From NCBI GenBank assembly GCA_964454175.1, contig CAYVSA010000047.1, positions 1 to 15,996 of the forward strand: 15,996 nt of DNA, written 5' to 3'. This stretch comes from an uncultured Pseudomonadota bacterium. Its GTDB lineage: Bacteria; BMS3Abin14. Position 1 is the stretch's first letter. Each line of letters opens with the position of its first letter. Position numbers and translations under genes: made by a program. The notes below the pieces were generated by a model. The model ran no database searches, was not told where the DNA came from, and worked only from the letters and a program-made list of their open reading frames with translations. This document shows positions 1,141-15,996 of this stretch, in pieces.

Positions 1141-1815
1141 TCAGCTCTTATCCTTCGGCTCCTTGTCCTTCTTTTTTTCTGTGGCAGTCTTTTTCCCGGT
1201 TTCCTTTTTGGCTGTTTCCTTCTTGGCTGTAACCTTCCTGGCTGTCTTCTTGCCAGCGGGTTTTACTTCTGCCGATTTCTCGTCTTTCGCCTTCTGGGCC
1301 TTCTTTGCTGTTTCCTTGTCCTTCTTTGCCGGTTTATCCTTTGTCTTCTGGTCGGCTTTCTTCTCGGAAGATCCTTTTTTTGCGGCTGTCTTCCTGGGGG
1401 TTTTGGCTTTGGTTTCCTTCTTCTTTGTCTTGCTTTCCTTCTCTTGCTTGGCCTCAATAGGCCTGTCTACAAGTTCCACCATGGCCATGGGAGCATTGTC
1501 GCCACTCCTGGGTTCAAGTTTCAGCACCCTGGTGTAGCCCCCGTCCCTGTCCCGGTAGCGCTCAGCAAGCACGGAAAACAGCTTTTTGACGACCTCATTG
1601 CTTTTGATAAAGGAGATGGCCTGGCGCCTGGCATGAAGGTCGCCGCGCTTACCCAGGGTGATCATTTTTTCGGTCAGCCTGCCAACCTCTTTGGATTTCG
1701 CATTGGTTGTTACTATCCTCTCGTACTGGAGGAGAGATGTCACTATATTGCGGAACATGGCTCTCCGGTGGGAGGTGCTTCGGTTGAGCTTTTTACCAGC
1801 TTTCATATGCCGCAT
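1141..1815 (-). CDS. rplQ: 50S ribosomal protein L17 with long Lys-rich C-terminal extension
   Basis: MRH...[15 protein letters not shown]...[24 protein letters not shown] is the L17 core (aa 1-117). It sits in the canonical position after rpoA. Confidence 0.98.
1186..1245 (-). repeat. Four tandem 15-bp units inside rplQ encoding [20 protein letters not shown]
   Basis: Plus strand reads agtctttttcccggt / ttcctttttggctgt / ttccttcttggctgt / aaccttcctggctgt. Confidence 0.75.
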
Positions 1816-1849
1816 CTGTACCCTACCTTTCGCTCACGACGATGTGTCC

Positions 1850-2875
1850 CTAGGACTCCAACTCAGTCTGTTCTTCCACCGACTCCTCAACCTGTGTCCA
1901 GCCCATAATGTCCATGCCGAAACTAAGACCCATTTCCTCAAGGATCTCCTTGAGCTCGTTCAGTGACTTGCGGCCAAAGTTCTTGGTCTTTAGCATCTCC
2001 GACTCGGTCTTCTGAACCAGCCCCCCGATAGACTTTATGTCAGCGTTCTGGAGGCAGTTGATGGATCGCACCGACAGTTCAAGCTCACTGACGCTTTTGT
2101 TCAGCTTCTCATAAAGCTTCTGTTTCTCTTCCTGGGACTCCTTCTGGACTTCCTCTTCGCCGATCTCCTCCTCCTCGAAGTTGATAAAGAGGTTCATATG
2201 CTCCTTCAGGATCTTGGCGGAGATGGCGAGGGTGTCTTCAGGAATAACACTGCCGTCAGTGGTAATTTCCATGATCAGCTTGTCATAATCCGTCATCATT
2301 CCCACACGAGCGCTCTCTACGCTATAGTTGACCTTGACAATGGGCGAGTGGATAGAATCAATAGCAATAAAATCGACAGGCAATTCCTCTGATTTATTTC
2401 TATCTGCTGGTACATAACCCTTGTTGACACCCACAACGATCTCCATCTTCAGATGGGCACCTTTTTCGAGCGTTGCAATGGTGATGTCAGGGTTCAGGAT
2501 CTCCACTTCATGATCAGTAATTATATCCGCACCGGTGACAACGCCCTTTTTCTTGGTATCCACGGAGATAATCCTTGATTCAACAGTGTGTACGTTAAAA
2601 CGGAGTTCCTTGAGGTTAAGTACGATCTGGGTCACGTCCTCGAAAACACCCGGAATCGTAGAGAATTCGTGGAGCACTCCCTCTATCCTGAAGGCGGTTG
2701 CCGCAGCACCCTGGAGGGAGGACAGCAGGATCCTCCTGAGAGCGTTGCCTATCGTTGTCCCGAATCCCCTTTCGAAGGGTTCTGCCGTAAATCGGCAGAA
2801 AGTCTCACTATTGTTCTTTTCGTCAAATATCAGTTTCCTGGGACGTGTCAGGCTTTTCCAGTTTTTCTCAATCAT
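1850..2875 (-). CDS. rpoA: DNA-directed RNA polymerase subunit alpha
   Basis: Motifs [36 protein letters not shown] and alpha-[15 protein letters not shown]...[17 protein letters not shown] upstream. Confidence 0.99.
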
Positions 2876-2902
2876 CGCAATCTATCTCCTGGCAGGCTCG
2901 TG

Positions 2903-3529
2903 CTACTTGGAGTAAAGCTCAACTATAAGCTGCTCCTGCACCGGCAGGGCAATTTCTTCACGGGTTGGAAAATTCTTGAACATACCCTTGAAACTGGGGG
3001 GTTCAAGTTCCAGCCATGCGGGAACACTTTTACGTTCAGCTGAGAGCATGGCTTCCTTGATCCTTACAGTTTTCCTGCTTTTTTCCCGGATCTCCACCGC
3101 ATCTCCCGGCCTGAGCAGGAAAGACGGAATATTTACCTTACGGCCGTTTACCATGACGTGCCCGTGCCTGATCAGTTGGCGCGAATCTGCCCTTGATGAA
3201 GCAAAACCAAGCCGGAAAACAGTATTGTCCAGCCGCCGTTCCAGCAGAACGAGGAGGTTCTCGCCTGTCACACCTCTCTGATTGTCGGCCATCTTGAAGT
3301 AATTCCTGAACTGGGCTTCCATCACGCCGTAAATTCTTTTTGCCTTTTGCTTTTCCCGAAGCTGGATCCCATAGTCGGAATGCTTGATCCTCCTCGTGCC
3401 ATGCACTCCGGGAGGATAAGGCCTGCGCTCAACGGCACATTTATCCGAGTAACACCGGTCGCCCTTGAGGAACAGCTTAGCGCCCTCCCTCCGGCATAAA
3501 CGGCAGACTGATTCGCGGTATCGAGCCAA
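2903..3529 (-). CDS. rpsD: 30S ribosomal protein S4 (Cys-containing form), TTG start
   Basis: [51 protein letters not shown]. Confidence 0.99.
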
Positions 3530-3548
3530 AATAAACCTCCTTGTTTAC

Positions 3549-3938
3549 CTAAACCCTTCGCCTCTTGGGCGGACGGCATCCGTTGTGTGGTATCGGCGTA
3601 ACGTCTCTGATGGTGGAGATCTCGAGGCCTGCGGCCTGGAGAGCCCTCAGGGCTGCTTCTCGCCCTGATCCTGGGCCTTTTACAAGGACGTTGACTTTGC
3701 GTACACCGTGTTCCATGGCCATTTTGGCGGCATCCGTGGCTGCCAACTGGGCCGCAAATGGTGTGCTCTTCCTGGAACCCTTGAAACCCTTACTGCCAGC
3801 GCTGCACCACGTCAATGTGTTGCCGACTGGGTCAGTAATTGTGATTATTGTGTTATTGAACGTAGCCTGGATATGGGCAACCCCCACCGGTACGTTCTTC
3901 TTGACTTTTTTTGACGATCCTTTTTTCGGTTTAGCCAT
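3549..3938 (-). CDS. rpsK: 30S ribosomal protein S11
   Basis: [42 protein letters not shown]. Confidence 0.99.
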
Positions 3939-3958
3939 TTCTTCCTCCGGATTCCCAG

Positions 3959-4330
3959 CTACTTCTTCTTCCTGCCGCCAATAGAGGGCTTGCGGCCCTT
4001 TCTCGACCTGGCATTTGTTTTAGTCCTCTGGCCCCGCACCGGCAAACCGCGCCTGTGTCTCAGGCCCTCATAGGAACCCAGGTCCATCTTCCTCTTGATG
4101 TTGAAGGCTATCTCTCTTCTGAGATCCCCTTCCACAATGTGCGTATTGGTGATGACATCCCTGATGCTGCTGACCTGCTTTTCATCCAGGTCTACAACCC
4201 TGACATCCGGATCCACATCTGCATCCCGCACAATTTTAGCGGCCTTGGTTGGTCCTATACCGTAAATATATGTAAGGGCCACCTCGATCCGTTTGTTCCT
4301 TGGTAAATCCACTCCAGCGATACGAGCCAC
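3959..4330 (-). CDS. rpsM: 30S ribosomal protein S13, GTG start
   Basis: [43 protein letters not shown]. Confidence 0.99.
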
Positions 4331-4346
4331 TTTCTACCTCCTGGCT

Positions 4347-4460
4347 TTAACCCTGTCTCTGTTTGTGCTTCGGGTTCACGCAGATGACCCGGACGACCCT
4401 ATTTCGCCGGACGATCTTGCACTTGTCGCACATCTTCTTCACCGAAGGTCTGACTTTCAT
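4347..4460 (-). CDS. rpmJ: 50S ribosomal protein L36 (zinc-ribbon form, 37 aa)
   Basis: Too short for the ORF track. Hand translation gives [37 protein letters not shown]. It lies between infA and rpsM. Confidence 0.98.
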
Positions 4461-4484
4461 CTCTCATCTATCCTTTCGGGAAGG

Positions 4485-4703
4485 TCATTTGACCCGGTAA
4501 GTTATCCTTCCCCTGGTAAGATCATAGGGTGAGAGCTCAACGGTGACCCGGTCTCCAGGCAGGATCCGGATATAGTGCATCCGCATTTTGCCGGAGATAT
4601 GAGCCAGCACCTGGTGCCCGTTGTCCAGTTCAACCCTGAACATCGCATTCGGCAGCGGTTCAACTACCTTGCCCTCAACCTCAATTGCTTCCTCTTTGGC
4701 CAT
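4485..4703 (-). CDS. infA: Translation initiation factor IF-1
   Basis: [55 protein letters not shown]. Confidence 0.99.
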
Positions 4704-4720
4704 ACCTCAATTATCTCCTG

Positions 4721-5479
4721 CTATAGTTCCTCATCTATGGTCAATATGACGGGGCCATCAGCGGTAATGGCGATCGTGTGCTCAAAGTGGGCCGACAAAC
4801 CGCCGTCTGCTGTTACCGCTGTCCATCCGTCACCCTGCACGTTCACAGCATCTGTACCCTCGTTGACCATTGGCTCTATTGCCAGTGTCATGCCCTCCTT
4901 GAGCCGGGCTCCGGAGTTAGGCCCACCAAAGTTGGGTACCTGGGGTTCCTCGTGAAGACTCCGCCCTATACCGTGCCCAACGAAGGTTTTGACAACCGAG
5001 TACCCGTTTTTTTCGACATAGCTCTGAACTGAATGGGATATATTCCCTATCCTGTTCCCGGCAGTAGCCGACCGGATACCCTGGAAGAGCGACTCCTTCG
5101 TAACCTTCATCAACTTCCTGGCATCACCGCTGATCTCACCGACTGGTAATGTTACAGCAGCATCGGTGTAAAAACCCTTGTAATAAGCACCAAAATCGAA
5201 TCCAACTATATCACCGTCTTCAAATATCCGCTCGTCCGATGGTATTCCATGCACAACCTCGTTGTTAATGGACACGCAAATACAACTTGGATAACCCATG
5301 TACCCTTTAAAAGCAGGCACCACACCCATTGCTCGCGACTTTTCTTCGACCAGTTTCTCTATTTCCGATGTGGCAATTCCAGGCCTTAACGCCTCCTCAA
5401 CCTCTTTCAGTATCTTTGCCACGACCCTGCCGCTATGCAGCATGATAGCGATATCGGTTAGAGATTTGGTATGAATCAT
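4721..5479 (-). CDS. map: Type I methionine aminopeptidase
   Basis: CVSINNEVVHGIP, with metal ligands in DFG...TD, GHGIG..LHEEP, AIEPM and SAHFEHT. Confidence 0.97.
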   Translation of the reverse strand: MIHTKSLTDIAIMLHSGRVVAKILKEVEEALRPGIATSEIEKLVEEKSRAMGVVPAFKGYMGYPSCICVSINNEVVHGIPSDERIFEDGDIVGFDFGAYYKGFYTDAAVTLPVGEISGDARKLMKVTKESLFQGIRSATAGNRIGNISHSVQSYVEKNGYSVVKTFVGHGIGRSLHEEPQVPNFGGPNSGARLKEGMTLAIEPMVNEGTDAVNVQGDGWTAVTADGGLSAHFEHTIAITADGPVILTIDEEL

Positions 5480-5513
5480 CTCCTGCCACCTGGTCCTGAG
5501 GCCGATCCCGTTC

Positions 5514-6167
5514 CTAATCCAACCCGGCCAGGCTGTCGACTATCTGGGAGAAGATATCGCTTATGTCTCCCGTACCCTGGATATTTTTTAAGCTGCCCTT
5601 TTTCCCGTAGTACGAAATAAGGGGGGACGTCTGGTCGTGATATACCCTGAGGCGCTGCCGGATAGTATCTTCCTTGTCATCATCTCTCTGGTAAAGCTCC
5701 CCCGCACAACTATCACAAGCGTCCTCGCTGGCCGGGGGGTTGAAAACGACATGAAAACTTTCGCCGCATCCCTTGCACATCCTGCGCCCCGTCAGACGGG
5801 TCACCAGTTCTTCATCATCTACTTCGATGCAGACGACGCTGTCTATATTCCGGCCGTTTTCGCTGAGAATGCCGTCGAGGGCCTCTGCCTGGGCGATGGT
5901 CCTGGGAAACCCGTCCAGGATGAATCCACCACGTGCATCAGGTTCCTTAATACGCTCATCGATGATGCCTATGACAACGCTGTCGGGCACCAGCTCACCC
6001 TTGTCCATGTAGTTTTTCGCTTCAGTACCGAGCTGGGTCCCTTCCCTGACGGCGGCTCTGAGGATATCTCCTGTGGATACCTGGGGAATATTCCATTTTT
6101 CAACCATCATTTTGGCCTGGGTACCTTTACCGGCACCAGGAGGCCCCAAAAGAATTATATCCATCAT
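5514..6167 (-). CDS. adk: Adenylate kinase with four-Cys LID; start could be 6167 or 6164
   Basis: P-loop [31 protein letters not shown]. The start overlaps the secY stop (ATGA). Confidence 0.98.
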
Positions 6168-7471
6168 CTTCTCCCCTTGATCCTGCCTTTTTTAAGAAAA
6201 CCTTCGTAATGCCTGGTTACAAGGTGTGTTTCGATCTGGGTAACAGTGTCCAGGGCCACACCGACTACAATGAGGAGTCCAGTTCCGCCAAAATAGAAAG
6301 GAACGTTAAATATCCTGTAGAGAATCTCCGGCAGAACGCATACCAGTGACAGGTAGATGGCTCCTCCGAAAGTAATCCTGGAAAGGACTCTGTCAATATG
6401 CTCAGAGGTTCTCCTTCCCGGTCGGATCCCGGGAATGAATCCCCCGTACTTTTTCAGATTGTCCGCAACGTCAATGGGGTTGAACTGTATGGCTGTATAG
6501 AAGTAACAGAAGAAGATTATTAATCCTACGTAAAGCACCGTGTAGAGCGCCCTGCCCGGAGCAAAAGTGTTGGCGATCGCCTCCATGATGGGGTTCTTTA
6601 TGAACCCGGCAACAGTGGCGGGAAACATCAGGATGGAAGACGCAAAAATAGGCGGTATGACTCCCGAAGTGTTTACCTTGAGCGGAAGGTGAGTGCTCTG
6701 CCCACCGTACATCTTCCTGCCTACAACTCGCTTGGCATACTGGACCGGTATCTTACGCTGACCCCTTTCCATAAATATGATGAAGCCAACGACAGCCACC
6801 ATGAGGATCAGCACGAAAACCATGAGAAAAGCCGATATCTCGCCAGTTTTGAGAAGGGTAAAAGTCCTGCCTGTTGCCGTGGGCATCCTCGCCACAATTC
6901 CCGCAAATATGATCAGGGAAATACCGTTGCCAATACCCCGCTCTGTGATCTGTTCGCCGAGCCACATTATGAAGGCAGTTCCAGCCGTGAGGCTGATCAC
7001 GGTAAAGACCCTGAACCCCCAGCCGGGGAAGGGAACGATGGCCGCTCCGCCCGGGCTTGTCATCTGCTCCAGCCCGATGGATATCCCGAAACTCTGGAAC
7101 GCCGCGAGGCCGACAGTTCCGTAACGAGTGTACCTGATGATCTTCCGACGACCAGCCTCCCCTTCCTTGGAAAGCCTCTCCAGGTAGGGTATCACCACGG
7201 TGAGCAGCTGAATGATAATGCTTGCACTGATGTATGGCATTATCCCCAGAGCGAAAATGGTCATCTTCAAAAGAGCGCCGCCGGCGAAAAGGTCGAAGAA
7301 TCCGAGAAGAGTTCCCTGGGCCTGCTTGAAAAACTCTGCCAGAGCGACGCCGTCGATCCCTGGTGTGGGGATATGGGCACCGATCCTGTATACCGCAAGG
7401 AGACCCAGCGTAACGAAGATTCGACGCTTTAATTCAGGGATCTTGAAAACATTTGAAAGTCCACCGAACAA
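6164..7471 (-). CDS. secY: Preprotein translocase subunit SecY, TTG start
   Basis: [62 protein letters not shown]. Confidence 0.99.
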
Positions 7472-7475
7472 TTAA

Positions 7476-7916
7476 CTATCCTTCCAGAATTTCTACCTTG
7501 CCCCCGGCCTTTTCAACCTTACTGGCAGCGGATTCAGATATCTTATGGATCCTGAGCGTGACAGGCCGTTCGAGTTCTCCCACCCCCAGCACTTTAACAG
7601 GGCGGCCTTTTCTAACGAGCCTGAACCTTTCCAGAACGTCCGGGTCAATAACGTCAACATCGGAGATCCTGGAAAGATCCTTCAGATTGACAACGGAATA
7701 TACCGTCCGGAACAGGTTTGTGAAACCGCGCTTCGGCAGCCTCCTCTGGAGAGGCATCTGGCCTCCCTCAAAACCGGCTTTGACACTGCCGCCCGAACGG
7801 GACAGCTGGCCGTTGGCTCCGCTGCCGCAGGTGCCGCCCAAACCCGAGCCCTGCCCTCTGCCTACCCGGCGCCGTTTTCTGGTGGCGCCTGGTGCCGGCT
7901 TCAATTTATCCAGCAT
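7476..7916 (-). CDS. rplO: 50S ribosomal protein L15
   Basis: RVGRGQGSG.G.T.G.G..GQ.SRSG, GFEGGQMPL.RRLPKRGF. Confidence 0.98.
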   Translation of the reverse strand: MLDKLKPAPGATRKRRRVGRGQGSGLGGTCGSGANGQLSRSGGSVKAGFEGGQMPLQRRLPKRGFTNLFRTVYSVVNLKDLSRISDVDVIDPDVLERFRLVRKGRPVKVLGVGELERPVTLRIHKISESAASKVEKAGGKVEILEG

Positions 7917-8105
7917 CTATTTATCCTCCAAAATTTCGATCCTGACCAGGTGCGGTACCTTGTCAAGCATACCCCTGATCCGCGGATTGTCGTCGTGTTC
8001 GACAGTCTGGTGAAGCTTTCTCAGCCCCAGGCTCTGAACTATCCTCTTGTGATTCTCAGGCCTTCCAATGGTGCTTCTAACCAGGGTAACCAAGATATTT
8101 CCCAT
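7917..8105 (-). CDS. rpmD: 50S ribosomal protein L30 (62 aa)
   Basis: Start reassigned to the ATG at 8105, which has GGAG upstream and does not overlap rpsE. Protein: MGNILVTLVRSTIGR...SLGLRKLHQTVEHDDNPRIRGMLDKVPHLV. Confidence 0.95.
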   Translation of the reverse strand: MGNILVTLVRSTIGRPENHKRIVQSLGLRKLHQTVEHDDNPRIRGMLDKVPHLVRIEILEDK

Positions 8106-8121
8106 TCTCCTGCTCCAATCC

Positions 8122-8649
8122 TCAATCGCCCAGGATCTCGCTGACCTTCTTGCCGCGAATGAAGGCAATCTCCTCAGGGCTCCTCAGCGACAGAAGTCCC
8201 TGCATGGTGGCCATCAGGACGTTGTTGGGGTTGTTTGTGCCTATACATTTGGACAGTACGTCCTTAACACCTAGTGACTCCATAAGGGCCCTCACTGGAC
8301 CGCCGGCGATAACTCCTGTTCCGTGGGATGCAGGCTTCAGGAGTACGCGAGCCGCTCCCCACCTGCCCATAACCTGATGATGAATAGTCGTCCCGGCAAG
8401 GGGTATCTTGTATAAATTCTTCTTGGCGTCCTCGATGCCCTTTCGGATAGCCTCCGGGACCTCGTTAGCCTTGCCTGAACCGACTCCCACCGTACCTTTG
8501 CCGTTGCCGACCACAACCAGGGCGCTGAAGCGGAACCGCCTCCCACCCTTGACGACCTTGGCAACACGATTGATGAAGACTACCTTGTCTATAAGCTCTG
8601 TCTCGTCAAGTCGTACGTCCCTGAGAGGTTTTTTAGAAAGCTTTTTCAT
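8122..8649 (-). CDS. rpsE: 30S ribosomal protein S5
   Basis: [47 protein letters not shown]. The ATG at 8649 (AAGGTG upstream) is preferred over the GTG at 8655. Confidence 0.97.
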
Positions 8650-8680
8650 CGTCACACCTTTTATAAACTGTTTGTGGCCA

Positions 8681-9049
8681 TCAGAACTTCAAGCCGCCTT
8701 CCCTGGCTGCCTCGGCCAGAGCCCTTATCCTTCCGTGATACCTGTAGCCGCCCCGATCAAAGGAGACTACTCCTATTTTCTTTGAAACCGCTCGCTCGGC
8801 AAGAAGGCTGCCCACTCTGGATGCTGCATCTGAGTTGCCGCCATGCTTGACCGAACCCTTAAGCTCCCTGTCCATCGTGGAAGCGCTGACCAGGACAGTG
8901 CCGAGATCATCGTTTATTATCTGTGCATAGATGTGCCTTGAACTTCTGAAAACAGAAAGCCTTGGTCTTTCGGCACTACCGAAAATCTTTCCCCTGATCC
9001 GGCGCCGCCTTCTGCTGCGCGCAACCACTTTTTCGTCAGTCTTTCCCAC
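8681..9049 (-). CDS. rplR: 50S ribosomal protein L18, GTG start
   Basis: [44 protein letters not shown]. Confidence 0.98.
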
Positions 9050-9073
9050 CTTATAAATCCTCCGCTGAAGCAG

Positions 9074-9613
9074 CTATTTAATTACTGCTTTTCCAACCTT
9101 GCGCTTGATGTACTCACCCACGTATCTTATCCCCTTGCCCTTGTAGGGTTCAGGAGGACGGATGGACCTGATATCGGCCGCTACCTGGCCCACCTGCTGT
9201 TTGTCTATACCGCTTACAGTTATACGGTTGTTGCCGTCGACATCGGCAGTGATCCCGTTGGGCAGTTTGAACTGTACGGGATTTGAGAACCCAACGTGGA
9301 GCTCCAGGCTTGACCCCTTCTGGAATGCACGGTAACCAACGCCTTCCATATCCAGTTTCTTTTCAAACCCTTCGGACACGCCCGTAACCATGTTGCTGAT
9401 CAGCGAACGCATAAGGCCCTGCAGTGCCGTATTCTGTTTTGGGCGGGAAGGAGGAAGGACCGATACGGATTCCTTTTCGACTTCCACTTCAACCCCATTA
9501 GGAAGGACCCTTGCCAGGCTTCCCTTAGGGCCCCTGGCGGAGATCTTCCTGCCTTCCAGGCTTACGACAACACCGCCTGGTATGAACACCGGCTGTTTAC
9601 CTATTCTGGACAT
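9074..9613 (-). CDS. rplF: 50S ribosomal protein L6
   Basis: MSRIGKQP, GVGYRA, RPPEPYKGKGIRY. Confidence 0.99.
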   Translation of the reverse strand: MSRIGKQPVFIPGGVVVSLEGRKISARGPKGSLARVLPNGVEVEVEKESVSVLPPSRPKQNTALQGLMRSLISNMVTGVSEGFEKKLDMEGVGYRAFQKGSSLELHVGFSNPVQFKLPNGITADVDGNNRITVSGIDKQQVGQVAADIRSIRPPEPYKGKGIRYVGEYIKRKVGKAVIK

Positions 9614-9665
9614 CTCAATTGCTCCATTGGCTGATCATATCGAAAAGGTCTGAAAAGTTAGAGAC

Positions 9666-10064
9666 CTACCAGATATAGCAGAGGACCTCGCCGCCCACTT
9701 TCATCCTTCTGGATTCCCTGTCGGCAACTACACCCTTGGAAGTAGACAGAATGGCGATCCCAAGACCGTTCAAGACCTTTGGTATCTCCCGTGATCCAAC
9801 ATATACCCGCCTACCCGGCTTACTTATTCGCTCCAGGTGAATAATCGCAGGGGTCTCCTGCTCAACATACTTGAGAGTAACCCTCAGAACGCCCTGTTTG
9901 CTGTCCTTCAGGACCCTGTAATCCTTTATATAGCCCTCGTCCTTCAAGATCCTGGCAATCCCCTCCTTGAGATAGGACATGGGGATGTCCACCTTTTCCT
10001 TACCGCTCATAAGAGCGTTGCGGATCCGGGTGAGCATATCGGCTATGGGATCGGTCATGGCCAT
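9666..10064 (-). CDS. rpsH: 30S ribosomal protein S8
   Basis: [42 protein letters not shown]. Confidence 0.99.
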
Positions 10065-10076
10065 TGATCTAACCTC

Positions 10077-10262
10077 CTACCAGCTGGCTTTCACCACACC
10101 GGGAATTTCGCCGTTAAGAGCTCTGGTACGAAAACATATACGGCACATGCCGAAGCGTCTCAGATAACCGCGGGACCGACCGCACAGGGGGCAGCGATTG
10201 TACCCCCTCACCTTGAACTTCGGTTCTTTTTGCGCTTTGTTAACCAGCGATTTTTTTGCCAT
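10077..10262 (-). CDS. rpsN: 30S ribosomal protein S14, short zinc-binding type Z (61 aa)
   Basis: MAKKS...[32 protein letters not shown]...[11 protein letters not shown]. Confidence 0.98.
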
Positions 10263-10274
10263 ATCATTTCACCT

Positions 10275-10814
10275 CTAGTTCCTGAACGGCATTCCGAGAA
10301 GCTTGAGAAGCTCCCTGGCCTCCTCATCCGTCCCGGCACTCGTTACAATTGTTACGTTCATGCCTTTTAACTGCTCAACATTGTCGTAGTCAATCTCGGG
10401 GAAAATCAGCTGTTCTCTGACCCCGAGTGTATAGTTTCCCCTGCCGTCAAAAGCCTTGGGGGACGAACCCTTAAAATCCCTCACTCTGGGCAGAGCAATG
10501 TTCATCAGCCGGCTGAGAAATTCGAACATCTTTGCCTTCCGCAGGGTTACCCTGCATCCGATCGGGTTCCCCTCCCTGAGTTTGAAGTTGGCAATGGATT
10601 TTCGAGCCCGGGTGAGGACAGGCCTCTGACCTGTGATCTGGGCCATTTCCTCCATGGACGTGTCCAGGACTTTTGCATTTTCCAGAGCATCACCCAATCC
10701 CATGTTGACAACTATTTTTTCCAGTTTTGGGACCTGCATTACGTTGCTGTAGCTGAAAGTCTTCATCATGGAAGGAATAACTTCTTTTTTGAATTTTTTC
10801 TGCAGCGAGTCCAT
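10275..10814 (-). CDS. rplE: 50S ribosomal protein L5
   Basis: [47 protein letters not shown]. Confidence 0.99.
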
Positions 10815-10827
10815 TTATATCTCCCGA

Positions 10828-11148
10828 TCAATCGAAGGACTCTCCGCACCCTGCGCAGAGTCTTACCTTGTTTCCGTCTTCCAGATGATTACTTTTGGTC
10901 CTCACGCCCTTGCCGCACTTCTGACAAAAGAGCATTACGTTTGAAACATGCAGAGAACCCTCTCTCTCGATGATACCGCCCTGTCTCGTCTCTCCGGAAG
11001 GTTTCTGATGCCGCTTAATAAAATTTACCTTCTCCACAACAACCCTGTCCTTGTCAGTGATGACTTTCAGGACCTTGCCTTTTTTGCCTCTTTCCTTGCC
11101 TGACCTGACAACAACCATGTCGTCTTTTCTGATCCCTATTCCAGCCAT
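10828..11148 (-). CDS. rplX: 50S ribosomal protein L24 (106 aa)
   Basis: Start reassigned to the ATG at 11148, with a GAGGT RBS overlapping the rplN stop. KOW motif [21 protein letters not shown], then [15 protein letters not shown]. Confidence 0.97.
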
Positions 11149-11158
11149 TTCATAGACC

Positions 11159-11527
11159 TCACAGCACCTCGGGTGCAAGGGAGACGATCTTCATGAAATT
11201 CTTTGCCCTGAGCTCGCGCGCGATGGGCCCGAAGATCCTCGTTCCAACCGGCTCCTGGTTTTCATTGATAATAACCGCCGCGTTGTTGTCGAAACGGATA
11301 TAGGAACCGTCAGTGCGGCGAACTTCCTTTTTGGTCCTAACTATTACCGCCCGGTGAACCTCTCCCTTGCGGACCTTGGATTCAGGGACAGCTTCCTTGA
11401 CGGTAACAACTATCATGTCTCCGACGCTTGCGGATTTCCTGCGCGAACCGCCCAGGATCCTGAAACAGAGGACCTTTTTGGCCCCGCTGTTGTCGGCCAC
11501 GTCGAGAACAGTTTCAACCTTGATCAT
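11159..11527 (-). CDS. rplN: 50S ribosomal protein L14
   Basis: [41 protein letters not shown]. Confidence 0.99.
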
Positions 11528-11551
11528 CTCAAACTCCCTGAGGTCCCGCCT

Positions 11552-11824
11552 CTATTCCAGCGAGCCTTTTTCTATAACGGATAGCAGCCGCCAGCGCTTT
11601 TTCCTGGAAAGCGGCCTCGTCTCCATGATCTGGACTGTATCACCGACTGCCAGCTCATTTTTCTCGTCGTGGACCATGTATTTGACCCGCCTTGTTACAT
11701 ATTTTTTGAAGACAGGGTGCGCGAATTTCCTGGAAGACTGTACGACTGCTGTCTTATCCATTCCGCTGCCGACCACCGTACCGGTGATGACCTTTCTGCC
11801 TGATCCGCTTTTAACCTCACTCAT
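11552..11824 (-). CDS. rpsQ: 30S ribosomal protein S17
   Basis: MDKTAVV, HPVFKKYV, HDEKNE..VGDTV.IMETRPLSRKKRW. Confidence 0.98.
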   Translation of the reverse strand: MSEVKSGSGRKVITGTVVGSGMDKTAVVQSSRKFAHPVFKKYVTRRVKYMVHDEKNELAVGDTVQIMETRPLSRKKRWRLLSVIEKGSLE

Positions 11825-12030
11825 GGTGTATCCTCTTTCGCCGCAGTGCTTTTCTCAGCTATGATCGTTTTTACTCTCGCCAGGTCTTTTCTGGTGAGGG
11901 ACAGACTCATGGGATTTTCCAGCTGATTGGTTGCAAGCTGGAAGCGGAGGTTAAACAGCTCCGAACTGAGGTCTTTCTCCTTCTGCTGCAGCTCTTCAAC
12001 GGTCATATCACGGAGTTGGGCAGTCTTCAT
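11821..12030 (-). CDS. rpmC: 50S ribosomal protein L29
   Basis: [17 protein letters not shown]...[13 protein letters not shown] overlaps with both neighbours. Confidence 0.98.
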
Positions 12031-12443
12031 CGCCTATCCTCCCTTGATACGATCCTCGCCTTGATGGGTAGCTTGTGAATTGCAAGTCTGAGTGCCTCCC
12101 GGGCAACGGACTCCGTAACACCTTCGATCTCGTACATGATCCTTCCGGGCTTGACCACGGCTACCCAGGCTTCCGGGGCACCCTTGCCCTTTCCCATCCT
12201 TGTCTCGGCAGGCTTGGCTGTTACCGGTTTGTCCGGGAATATCCTGATCCAGACCTTTCCGCCCCTTTTTACATATCTCGTCATGGCTATACGGGCTGAC
12301 TCTATCTGCCTGGAAGTGATCCACCCGGGAGCAAGTGCCTGGATCCCGAAATCGCCGAAATTCAGGGTGTTACCCCTTCTGGCAGCGCCTCTCATCCTCC
12401 CGCGGCTCTGTTTCCGGAACTTTACTTTCTTGGGCATTAACAT
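12027..12443 (-). CDS. rplP: 50S ribosomal protein L16
   Basis: [42 protein letters not shown]. Confidence 0.99.
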
Positions 12444-12497
12444 GACGCAATCTCCGTTTTATCCGCGACGGTAAAAACCGCGGCTCCATACCCGTAC

Positions 12498-13154
12498 CTA
12501 CCTGGCCTGGGGCTCTTCACTCTCCCTGGCAGACATTACCTCGCCTTTGAAGATCCATACCTTGACCCCGATAATTCCATAAGTAGTCTTGGCTTCGGCG
12601 AACCCGTAATCTATGTCCGCGCGGAGGGTCTGAAGGGGCACACGTCCTTCTCTGTACCACTCCCTCCTGGACATCTCGGCGCCGTTGAGTCTTCCAGAGC
12701 ACATAACCTTGATGCCTTCAGCGCCGAATCTCAGTGCAGAGGCAACGCTCCTCTTGAGTGCCCTCCTGAAAGCCACTCGGCGAAGAAGCTGGCTGGCAAT
12801 ATTCTCGGCAACCAACTGTGCTTCAACTTCCGGTTTCCTGATCTCGATAATATTCACAAAGATGTCCTTGTCGGTCATCTTCTGTATGTCTCTGCGGAGA
12901 AGTTCAACTTCGGAACCTTTCTTGCCGATAATTATCCCTGGTCTGGCGGCATGGATGTTAATCCTTGCGCGCTTTGCCGTCCGCTCGATGATGATGTCGG
13001 ATATGCCCGCGTGGAAGAGCTTTTCCTTGATAAAGCCCCTGATCCTGATGTCTTCATGAAGAAGGCGGGCATAGTCTTTCTCTGCGTACCACCGGGAGTC
13101 CCAGTCCCTGATGATCCCTAAACGGAACCCCTTAGGGTGAACTTTCTGACCCAC
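12498..13154 (-). CDS. rpsC: 30S ribosomal protein S3, GTG start
   Basis: [47 protein letters not shown]. Confidence 0.99.
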
Positions 13155-13156
13155 GT

Positions 13157-13498
13157 TTATCCTCCTGACTTCTCTTCGAGCACGACCGTGATGTGGCTGG
13201 ACCTTTTTCTGATAACAGTAGCCCTGCCCATGGCCCTGGGCATGAACCTCTTCATTGTAGGTCCTTCATCCACAAAAGCAGACTTTATGACCAGGCTGTC
13301 GGCATCCATACCCTTGGTGTTTTCCGCGTTGGCGACAGCAGACTTGATAACTTTGGCGATAACAGGGGATGATGCCTTGTGTACGAGCTCAAGGATATTC
13401 AGAGCCTCGTTAACACTTCTGCCCCTGACCAAGTCCATAACCAGGCGAACCTTTCTGGGCGCTATTCGAACAAATTTCGCTTTGGCAAGTGCTTCCAT
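13157..13498 (-). CDS. rplV: 50S ribosomal protein L22
   Basis: [51 protein letters not shown]. Confidence 0.99.
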
Positions 13499-13510
13499 GA
13501 TCTGATTCCC

Positions 13511-13792
13511 CTACTTGGATCCTCTCCTGTCAGACTTTGACGTGTGGCCCCTGTAGGTCCTGGTGGGAGAAAACTCCCCCAGCCTGTGACCAACCATGTT
13601 CTCGGAGACGAAAACGGGTACGAATTTTCTGCCGTTGTGGACTGCAAATGTATAGCCGACCATGTCAGGTGTGATCATGGACCGACGCGACCACGTCTTG
13701 ATAACTTTTTTATCCCCGGTCTCCTCCATCAACTGGACTTTCTTCTGCAGGTGTTCGTCTACAAAGGGACCCTTTTTTATGGACCTGGCCAA
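13511..13792 (-). CDS. rpsS: 30S ribosomal protein S19, TTG start
   Basis: [36 protein letters not shown]. Confidence 0.99.
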
Positions 13793-13807
13793 AATCTTCC
13801 TCCTGTC

Positions 13808-14629
13808 CTATGACCGCCTCTTGACGATATAGCGGTCCGAGTTCCGGTTCTTGCGTGTCTTGAAGCCCTTGGTGGGCTTTCCCCAGGGTGTGCAGGGATG
13901 ACGGCCACCAGAGCTTTTACCCTCTCCGCCGCCCATTGGATGGTCAACCGGGTTCATGGCAACGCCCCTCACGTTTGGGCGCTTTCCGAGCCATCTTGAC
14001 CTGCCCGCCTTGCCTATACTGATAATCTCGTGGTGCGGATTGGACAGCTCACCGATGGTAGCTTTGCACTCGAGGCGAATGAGCCTGATCTCCCCCGATG
14101 GAAGTCTGATATGGGCAAACTCTCCCTCCTTGGCCATGAGCCTGGCGTGTCCGCCTGCACTCCTGACCAACTGCCCGCCCTTGCTTTCCTTCATCTCAAT
14201 GTTGTGTATGCTGGTGCCCGCAGGAATGTTCTTCAGCCTCTTCGTGTTTCCAGGCCTGATATCAGCATCCGGACCGGACAATATCGTGTCCCCCACATTC
14301 AGGTTCTGGGGGGCAAGAATATAGCGTTTCTCTCCATCAGCATAGACAACCAGGGCAATATGACAGGACCTGTTCGGATCGTATTCAACAGTTCTCACTC
14401 TGGCCGGGATCCCGTCCTTGTCCCTCTTGAAATCAATTATCCTGTAGCGTCTCTTGTGACCACCGCCGCGGTGCCAGGAGGTGACCCTCCCGGTATTATT
14501 CCTGCCGCCGGTCTTGCGAAGTGGGGCCAGGAGGCTTTTTTCCGGTTTCGAGGTAGTGATCTCCGCAAAATCGGAGACAGTCATAAAGCGTCTGCCCGGC
14601 GATGTAGGCTTCATTTTCTTAATACCCAT
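13808..14629 (-). CDS. rplB: 50S ribosomal protein L2 (273 aa)
   Basis: Start reassigned to the ATG at 14629 ([18 protein letters not shown] upstream; avoids overlap with rplW). Motifs EYDPNRS and [17 protein letters not shown]. Confidence 0.98.
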
Positions 14630-14643
14630 CTGCTTCTCCCGGA

Positions 14644-14934
14644 TTAAACGCCCTCGAAGAACTCGATCGTGCTGCCTTCTGCGAGGGTAACTATGGCCTT
14701 TTTCCAATCCCGGCGTTTGCCAAGGTGGCGGCCCATGCGTTTTACCTTGCCCTTCATATTCATGACATTTACAGTCTCGACAGAAACCTTGAAAGCTTCT
14801 TCAATAGCTTTTTTTATCTCGATCTTGTTGGCGTCTTTGGCTACCTCGAAGACCACCTTGTTCTGAAGTTCCTTCAGAATAGCGTTCTTTTCGGTGATGA
14901 GCGGCCTGAGTATGATCTGGTTGTAAGGTCTCAT
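14644..14934 (-). CDS. rplW: 50S ribosomal protein L23
   Basis: [38 protein letters not shown]. Confidence 0.98.
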
Positions 14935-15551
14935 TCGGCCTGAACTCCTTCCAAAGCCTCAATGGCTCCCTTTGTCAGGACCAGCGTATCGAAGGAGAGG
15001 ATGTCGTATGTATTGACCCTGGCTGCCGGCACAACCTTCACCCATGACAGGTTTGATGATGCTCTGGCCAGATCCTCGGTAACCTCCTCGACTACCAGGA
15101 GAGCACTGACAATATCAAGCCTGTCCATCATTTCCACAAGAAGCCTGGTCCTGGGGGATTCAAGGCTGATCTCATCCAGAACGACAAGTGAATCAGTCTG
15201 AACCCGGTGGGCAAGAGCACTCCTGATCGCTTTTCTGGAGGCCTTCTTGTTCATCTTTTTGGCAAAGGACCTTGGTGTGGGGCCGAATACAATGCCGCCA
15301 CCCCTCATTTGTGAAGCACGGGTGGTACCTTGTCTGGCGCGACCGGTCCCTTTTTGCCGGAAGGGCTTTTTCCCGCCTCCCCGGACGTCTGAGCGACTCT
15401 TTGTACTCAATGTACCCCTCCTGGCTCCTGCCAAAGCGGCAACCACGGCCTGATGCACGAGGGGTCCATTTACAGGGTCGTCCCACCAGGAGGCAAGATC
15501 TACCTTCCCAACGACTTCCTTCTCACTGTTAACTACTTCAACCTGAGGCAT
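14931..15551 (-). CDS. rplD: 50S ribosomal protein L4
   Basis: [42 protein letters not shown]. Confidence 0.98.
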
Positions 15552-15562
15552 TTCACACCCGC

Positions 15563-15874
15563 CTACGAAAGTTTGATTTCCACGTCAACACCGGCAGATA
15601 GATCCAGCTTCATAAGCGCATCTACTGTCTGGGGCGTGGGTTCCACAATGTCCAGCATCCTTTTGTGGACGCGGATCTCGAACTGTTCTCTCGATTTTTT
15701 ATCAACATGGGGCGAGCGAAGCACTGTATAGATACTGCGCCTTGTAGGAAGCGGGATCGGGCCGCACACCCTGGCACCGGTCCTCCTGGCAGTCTCAACG
15801 ATCTCTGTGACCGATGTGTCCAGGACCCGATGGTCGTACGCCTTCAGTTTGATCCTAATTTTTTGCTGTTCCAT
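15563..15874 (-). CDS. rpsJ: 30S ribosomal protein S10
   Basis: [39 protein letters not shown]. Confidence 0.99.
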
Positions 15875-15925
15875 TACCCGATTCCTTTCCTGCCTTTTTA
15901 AAGCTGAACGCCCGACAGGCCATAG

Positions 15926-15996
15926 CTACTTTATGATCTCGGCAACGACCCCGGCTCCCACTGTTCTGCCGCCCTCGCGGATGGCAAAACGAAGCT
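15926..15996 (-). CDS. tuf: Elongation factor Tu, C-terminal fragment (5' partial)
   Basis: Hand translation gives LRFAIREGGRTVGAGVVAEIIK*, the conserved EF-Tu C-terminus, directly upstream of rpsJ. Confidence 0.96.
   Translation of the reverse strand, partial: LRFAIREGGRTVGAGVVAEIIK

Follow-up and report, generated by a model that had tools for sequence, protein, structure and literature searches.

The window analysed here, i.e. the whole stretch of 15,996 bp, is the entire contig C47 of a 2.17-Mb draft genome (135 contigs, rated 98.5% complete), and it carries an S10-spc-alpha ribosomal gene cluster on its minus strand. At the upstream end of the cluster lies the 3' end of a tuf gene (15926-15996), truncated by the contig end, which was identified from its reading frame rather than by Pfam and the frame of which stops at a TAG (15928-15926). 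Over its final 71 nt the contig is 98.6% identical to the end of contig C49 of the same genome (C49 15442-15512). On C49 a second tuf 3' end is followed by nusG, rplK, rplA, rplJ, rplL and rpoB (translations read by eye), and C47 thus ends where it does because the contig end falls in a duplicated tuf. Between tuf and rpsJ there is a spacer of 51 nt (15875-15925), which is too short for rplC.

The rpsJ gene (uS10, 103 aa; 15563-15874) has its ATG at 15874 and its TAG at 15565-15563, covers positions 1-98 of the 98 in Pfam PF00338 (Ribosomal_S10, 1.4e-38), and shows 91-94% identity to the relatives in its family. It is followed, after an 11-nt spacer GCGGGTGTGAA (15552-15562) at the usual slot of rplC, by rplD (uL4, 206 aa; 14931-15551; PF00573 Ribosomal_L4, 4.5e-62). 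The rplD product is 60-74% identical to its homologues in the family, which were found in 14 of 15 relatives, the only miss being a genome rated 71% complete. The start of rplW (uL23; 14644-14934; PF00276, 1.1e-35) overlaps the rplD stop, and the remainder of the cluster, from rplB to rplQ, occupies 1141-14707 in canonical order. After L23, Pfam named L2 and S19 (rplB, rpsS) and, in the expected order, 24 more open reading frames on the same strand: L22, S3, L16, L29, S17, L14, L24, L5, S14, S8, L6, L18, S5, L30, L15, SecY, Adk, Map, IF-1, S13, S11, S4, RpoA and L17. An ABC-transporter ATPase gene, also recognised by Pfam, follows rplQ. Two of the products may be noted: rplQ (1144-1815) encodes a 224-aa L17, in which the Pfam domain spans residues 20-116 and the C-terminal ~100 residues make up a Lys-rich low-complexity extension, and rpsN (10077-10262) encodes the short 61-aa form of S14.

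The original prediction had placed the rpsJ stop at 15563-15565 and, after a gap of 11 nt, the rplD ATG at 15551, and these coordinates agree with the minus-strand reading and the table of open reading frames. It was also right, in our judgement, in describing the flanking genes as intact and the rplD start as native-looking, and the GGTGTGA-bearing string AAGGTGTGACGATG that it reported upstream of rpsE is found in the sequence. The Pfam names, rpmJ apart, bear out its statement that the other S10, spc and alpha genes are present and in order. That no L3-like reading frame or remnant occurs in the window was likewise confirmed: when the full-length uL3 of the closest relative was used as tblastn query, the best E in the window was only 1.7, within other genes, and a profile search of the whole genome matched a different contig alone (see below).

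The gene order rpsJ-rplC-rplD is among the most stable in bacteria. Ten of the eleven genes of the canonical S10 operon (gene list and control by L4 as given in the relevant parts of PMC3616713) are found here on a single strand with their order unchanged, running into the spc and alpha genes, but rplC is not located between rpsJ and rplD, which directly adjoin. With rpsJ only 51 nt after tuf there is moreover no room for an S10 leader of the E. coli type. Unlike in the canonical S10 operon, synthesis of uL3 cannot here be coupled to the S10 transcript.

The second locus of rplC and its conservation in the family

The whole genome was searched with the Ribosomal_L3 HMM (PF00297), and one match was obtained, on the minus strand of contig C111 (3288-3551). 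C111 has a length of 3768 bp, and the open rplC frame comprises 267 codons and continues past the edge of the contig; judged against relatives, the first ~23 codons are missing. With the equivalog model TIGR03625 (L3_bact, NCBIfam) the frame reached 243 bits, compared to a cut-off of 142.9, and spanned model positions 21-201 of 202, the coverage being incomplete because the contig ends inside rplC. The full-length uL3 of the relative G012 reached 283.3 bits with the same model (positions 2-202) and can be aligned over its whole length to bacterial uL3 chains of solved structure (E 5.4e-67). The presence of one bacterial-type uL3 gene on C111 shows that uL3 has not been lost, in line with the earlier view that a true loss is very unlikely, and the search for L3 that had been proposed led to a single rplC elsewhere in the genome, among non-ribosomal neighbours. 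No convincing match to the missing 5' end of rplC was found on the other contigs of the genome (best E 0.43).

On C111, rplC is followed on the same strand by the gene of a 136-aa receiver-only response regulator (REC), by tatA and by a gene of the arsR family, and no rplD is present. Beyond arsR there is a divergent pair consisting of a 205-aa reading frame and an aminotransferase gene. The order aminotransferase, 205-aa reading frame, arsR, tatA, REC, rplC is also that of the relatives. In the genome of the window and in G010, a simple sigma-70 and terminator scan gave a terminator-like hairpin after tatA and then a near-consensus TTGACA-18-AATAAT site before arsR (L138, i.e. G000:C111, 2166-2259, minus strand; L127, 9864-9922, plus strand). 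This conserved hairpin and the TTGACA site suggest that arsR is transcribed separately from rplC-tatA.

The uL3 proteins of the family end in an acidic C-terminal tail rich in Pro, Glu and Ala, with a median length of 87 aa (range 20-107; lengths taken from C111 and the family rplC loci L003-L024). The tail encoded in the genome of the window (L001:1180-1430, C111) has 84 residues, with 28 Asp plus Glu and 2 Lys plus Arg. The median in 86 canonical genes is 5.5 aa.

The lineage, i.e. the GTDB phylum of the window, comprises one family only, which a phylum-level search represented with 16 species genomes of 9 genera. Each of the 16 contains one L3 match. Fifteen genomes (the window's own and 14 relatives) contain the complete rpsJ-rplD locus, and in every one of them a G-rich spacer of 11-15 nt separates the end of rpsJ from the rplD ATG, so that the comparison with relatives called for in the original prediction returned the same junction throughout. 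At the family rplC, conversely, none of the 12 loci long enough to judge had rpsJ as a neighbour, and none of 15 had rplD. The distance between the two genes can be read directly from three single-contig genomes: 33 kb in G010 (rplD at 1,824,093, rplC at 1,856,922), 332 kb in G002 (1,676,313 and 2,008,378), and, on the 2.78-Mb chromosome of G001 (390,530 and 2,095,832), 1.7 Mb, or 1.07 Mb the other way round. A search of public sequencing runs for the junction gave three matches, all at a word share of 0.04, and turned up no RNA data for this organism.

Downstream of rplC, tatA and arsR (names from Pfam) are present in 11 of the 12 relatives examined, and a match to the receiver gene lay between rplC and tatA in 5 of the 12. 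The upstream neighbours are variable, with MoxR-DUF58-VWA genes in three genomes and tRNA-Sec in three. The latter shares the strand of rplC and lies ~220-275 nt upstream of it (L135:2152-2249, L129:9954-10051, L130:9651-9748). In the genome of the window, tRNA-Sec is instead found at the start of contig C52 (52-149) with different downstream genes, from which it follows that the upstream side of rplC has been rearranged. Among assemblies of the two most closely related genera, three independent ones break ~12-23 codons into rplC (at the end of G000:C111, the end of G006:C278 and the start of G015:C251); G012, which belongs to one of these two genera, has an intact rplC leader region.

Since the junction, the separate rplC and its synteny recur across the family, the move predates the common ancestor of the family. 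The relocation of rplC is real, ancient and fixed across the whole of this deep lineage, and an artefact is not supported.

Stand-alone rplC in other lineages and the descent of uL3

Adjacency of rplC to its usual neighbours was assessed outside the family by scripted tblastn with a limit of 400 nt. Among 13 unrelated genomes, rpsJ and rplC were adjacent in 11 of the 12 loci with room to judge, and rplC and rplD in all 13. The 80 named loci best matching the C111 uL3 come from other phyla (45-57% identity, none from the family), and here rpsJ was adjacent in 69 of 77 and rplD in 69 of 76, two of the misses lying barely above 400 nt. Seven loci among the 80 are truly stand-alone, and they belong to metagenome-assembled genomes (MAGs) labelled Bacteriovoracaceae, Deltaproteobacteria (UBA5756 and RA.bin14), Myxococcales, Syntrophorhabdaceae, Syntrophus sp. 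and Omnitrophota. As in the family, each of these MAGs has a single L3 gene that is beside neither rpsJ nor rplD, and rpsJ directly precedes rplD in all six in which L4 was found. On the other hand, their rplC neighbourhoods, of at least four kinds, are unlike that of the family, and their uL3 tails are short (median 12 aa in the seven genes, compared to 87 aa). In four of them, which are Syntrophus/Syntrophorhabdaceae-like (L050, L053, L059, L068), rplC is followed by PTPS (queD-type), folE2 and yqeC, a neighbourhood that is a second conserved home for rplC; two of the four also have divergent HDOD and hybrid histidine-kinase genes upstream of rplC. The neighbours are HEAT-repeat and FtsJ genes in the Myxococcales MAG, efp in the Omnitrophota MAG and exoD in the Bacteriovoracaceae MAG.

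A sample of 151 genomes from the phylum of the Syntrophus MAG included 148 with both rplC and rplD (tables compared by eye). The genes were adjacent in 138 and on different contigs in 10 of the 148. With seven other genomes and these 10 of 148 showing it, the rplC-rplD split is rare yet recurrent, and a separate rplC is not unique to this lineage. A search of the open full-text literature on gene order, leaders and uL3-rRNA contacts gave no report of rplC outside the S10 operon or of an L3-binding leader.

In a careful uL3 tree (68 rows, leaving out 40 of 46 actinobacterial rows) the family forms one clade with support of 100/99, and its inner groupings agree with those of the uL4 tree, showing that uL3 has been inherited vertically within the lineage. 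The family is placed in a group with 88/87 support, the other members of which are six stand-alone uL3 genes from outside the family and two from Nitrospinota, the latter pair with the canonical rpsJ-rplC-rplD order. An AU test did not reject the family and the six stand-alone genes as one clade (p 0.915). No placement matching this deep grouping was seen in the uL4 tree, and the deep nodes of both single-protein trees are weakly supported. A quick uL3 tree had placed the other stand-alone genes apart from the family; it was given no weight on this point because the constrained tree had a higher likelihood.

Three other accounts of the split have to be weighed against a relocation of the native gene. 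The original prediction had offered, beside relocation, the reading that 0.6-0.7 kb had been lost through assembly or editing. A drop of ~0.65 kb with rplC between rpsJ and rplD might be suspected in a 135-contig draft in which rplC is found on a short, 3768-bp contig that breaks inside the gene. However, 14 relatives whose genomes were assembled independently, three of them as single contigs, have the same tight junction, the genes after rplC on C111 are REC, tatA and arsR rather than rplD, and the end of C47 is accounted for by the duplicated tuf, so that only the relocation part of that prediction stands and the chance of an artefact is negligible. It is also very improbable that C111 was mis-binned from another organism, which would leave the organism's own rplC unaccounted for. 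The contig is short and its rplC end has no k-mer overlap to other contigs, but over 190 matched residues its uL3 shares 81% identity with that of G012, the nearest family genome, and it branches where the uL4 of the window branches. All six C111 genes are moreover in the family order, and the composition of the contig is typical of the bin (GC 0.537 compared to 0.528 +/- 0.014; tetranucleotide distance ranking 13 of 24 among contigs of similar size). C111 could stem from a close relative in the same sample, and the biological conclusion would then be unchanged. The remaining account, in which a stand-alone rplC entered an ancestor from another lineage and the operon copy was lost afterwards, draws on the 88/87 group, the outcome of the AU test and the uL4 tree that lacks a matching placement. 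We consider it improbable, as the deep nodes in question are poorly resolved in both trees, the Nitrospinota pair in the same group keeps the canonical order, and the genomic contexts of the stand-alone genes differ among lineages. Two L3 genes were found in no genome examined, and for this reason transposition of the native gene is favoured over replacement by an acquired copy.

A conserved leader and promoter-like box upstream of rplC

Upstream of rplC a single-copy promoter-like box and a conserved leader are present in 13 of the 16 family genomes; the other three are G006, G015 and the genome of the window, in each of which the contig is broken within the 5' end of rplC. The leader of the window's organism is thus inferred from its relatives because its own rplC 5' end, promoter and leader are unassembled. 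From 5' to 3', the series conserved in alignments A1, A2 and A4 consists of a TTGACG box, a TA-rich element ~17 nt later, a CUUCUCC-like stretch, CUA, AAAC, a hairpin with an AUYCG/CGGAU base and a variable loop, AAGA, UAG, AAGGAGG and the start codon. The leader has a length of ~65 nt. The -10-like element has A rather than T as its last base, and in G010 the conserved box upstream of rplC was not among the sites called by the simple sigma-70 scan.

A degenerate core motif occurs exactly once per genome in 12 of the 16, always before rplC, with no occurrence in a reversed control, and the thirteenth genome has the core motif with a longer loop. Similarly, the covariance model R1 gave one match per genome in 13 of 16, with scores of 58-76 bits (these 13 include the model's own sequences), and no match in the genome of the window. 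In 29 further sources (the window, C111, the seven stand-alone and 14 canonical loci, and six pieces of 23S rRNA) the best E was only 0.92, and the stand-alone MAGs thus differ from the family also in showing no match to the leader model.

The 9-bp hairpin is paired in 88% of cells, and five of its nine pairs have changed on both sides; when the partners were slid, 37-50% were paired. All 13 predicted minimum-free-energy folds are three-tiered, with GGAGG paired to the 5' CUUCUCC stretch. The outer helix predicted in this way encloses the invariant CUA/UAG helix, a 4x4 internal loop (AAAC opposite AAGA) and the covarying hairpin. It cannot itself show covariation because one of its strands is the ribosome-binding site. 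Folding z-scores of single leaders are modest (+0.07 to -2.56).

A structured, conserved 5' UTR before a ribosomal gene, with a predicted ribosome-binding site within a helix, is what the rplC leader has in common with known ribosomal-protein leaders. It differs from them in lying outside every family of Rfam release 15, against which the leader region of a relative gave a best E of 0.057, for a sub-threshold snoRNA model. Eckert and Weinberg (2020) presented 20 candidate ribosomal-protein leaders (PMC7247131), in what is the largest list published so far, and the logic by which their label 'Only' assigns a ligand applies equally here, since rplC is the sole ribosomal gene in its unit. In the passage around Table 1 of the same paper, no L3 ligand is given.

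The 23S rRNA of the family (L157-L163) contains GCUA(A/C)AUYCGGAAAGGAUAACCGC, which shares with the leader GCUAAA, the AUYC/GGAU stem base and the following AA. Among ribosomal leaders, mimicry of rRNA sites is common but not universal. Here the likeness is confined to a short motif, and mimicry of 23S rRNA by the leader, as a possible reading of it, is given little weight; R1 had no match on the six 23S pieces, in loci where most of the 23S reads as N. According to PMC9687910, uL6 natively binds H97.

Proposed explanation and implications

Taken together, the rpsJ-rplD junction, the conserved second locus and the vertical inheritance of uL3 within the lineage are best explained by a departure of rplC from the S10 cluster before the lineage's last common ancestor, with the gene kept at the second locus ever since, and we hold this to be very probable. 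In the window, rpsJ now borders on rplD with just a short spacer between them, which is G-rich and resembles a Shine-Dalgarno sequence, and the S10-spc-alpha cluster is otherwise unaltered. At its new location rplC probably heads a transcription unit of its own, starting from the TTGACG box and the TA-rich element.

The most likely role of the leader would be translational feedback on uL3 synthesis, in which an excess of free uL3 would cause a protein (uL3 itself, to judge by position) to keep the ribosome-binding site shut. With rplC as the sole ribosomal gene in its unit, uL3 is the most likely ligand, and we infer that the leader is a candidate uL3 feedback operator. Such feedback would replace the operon-level coupling that rplC has lost. 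A stronger form, namely that the lineage evolved a dedicated uL3-sensing translational operator after rplC had left the S10 operon, is tentative and in our estimate rather unlikely. Free uL3 would then bind the AAAC/AAGA internal loop and the flanking helices and lock the ribosome-binding site in the outer helix, and the long acidic uL3 tail gained in the lineage could belong to the same adaptation.

The leader could instead be a stem-loop that stabilises the 5' end, or be bound by some factor different from uL3, and to this we assign a chance somewhat short of even. The structure begins at the likely 5' end of the transcript, R1 did not detect 23S mimicry, rplC is co-located with a response-regulator gene in some genomes, and uL3 as ligand is a prediction, all of which would fit such a role. 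Pairing of the ribosome-binding site in 13 of 13 predicted folds and the position of rplC as the only ribosomal gene in the unit argue for feedback by uL3 instead, as does the combination of internal loops with little or no variation and a covarying hairpin stem. Invariant loops together with a covarying stem are the typical pattern of a protein-recognised operator. If the leader is indeed a uL3-sensing operator, it would be a bacterial ribosomal leader with uL3 as ligand, of which none was found in the literature searched, and a new feedback control would have arisen to compensate for lost operon coupling.

An entire deep-branching lineage without the rpsJ-rplC-rplD order shows that production of uL3 need not depend on the S10 transcript. 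In practical terms, phylogenomic and binning schemes that expect the ribosomal block on one contig will miss uL3 here, or take it from a small and easily lost contig, and annotation checks may falsely flag such genomes as incomplete or mis-assembled. The same split in other lineages, with different neighbours, suggests a recurring rearrangement that can be mapped systematically. Of the leads obtained, the leader, as a candidate element for feedback by uL3, holds the most promise, and its predicted structure offers a testable case in which stoichiometric control may have been rebuilt after an essential ribosomal gene left its operon.
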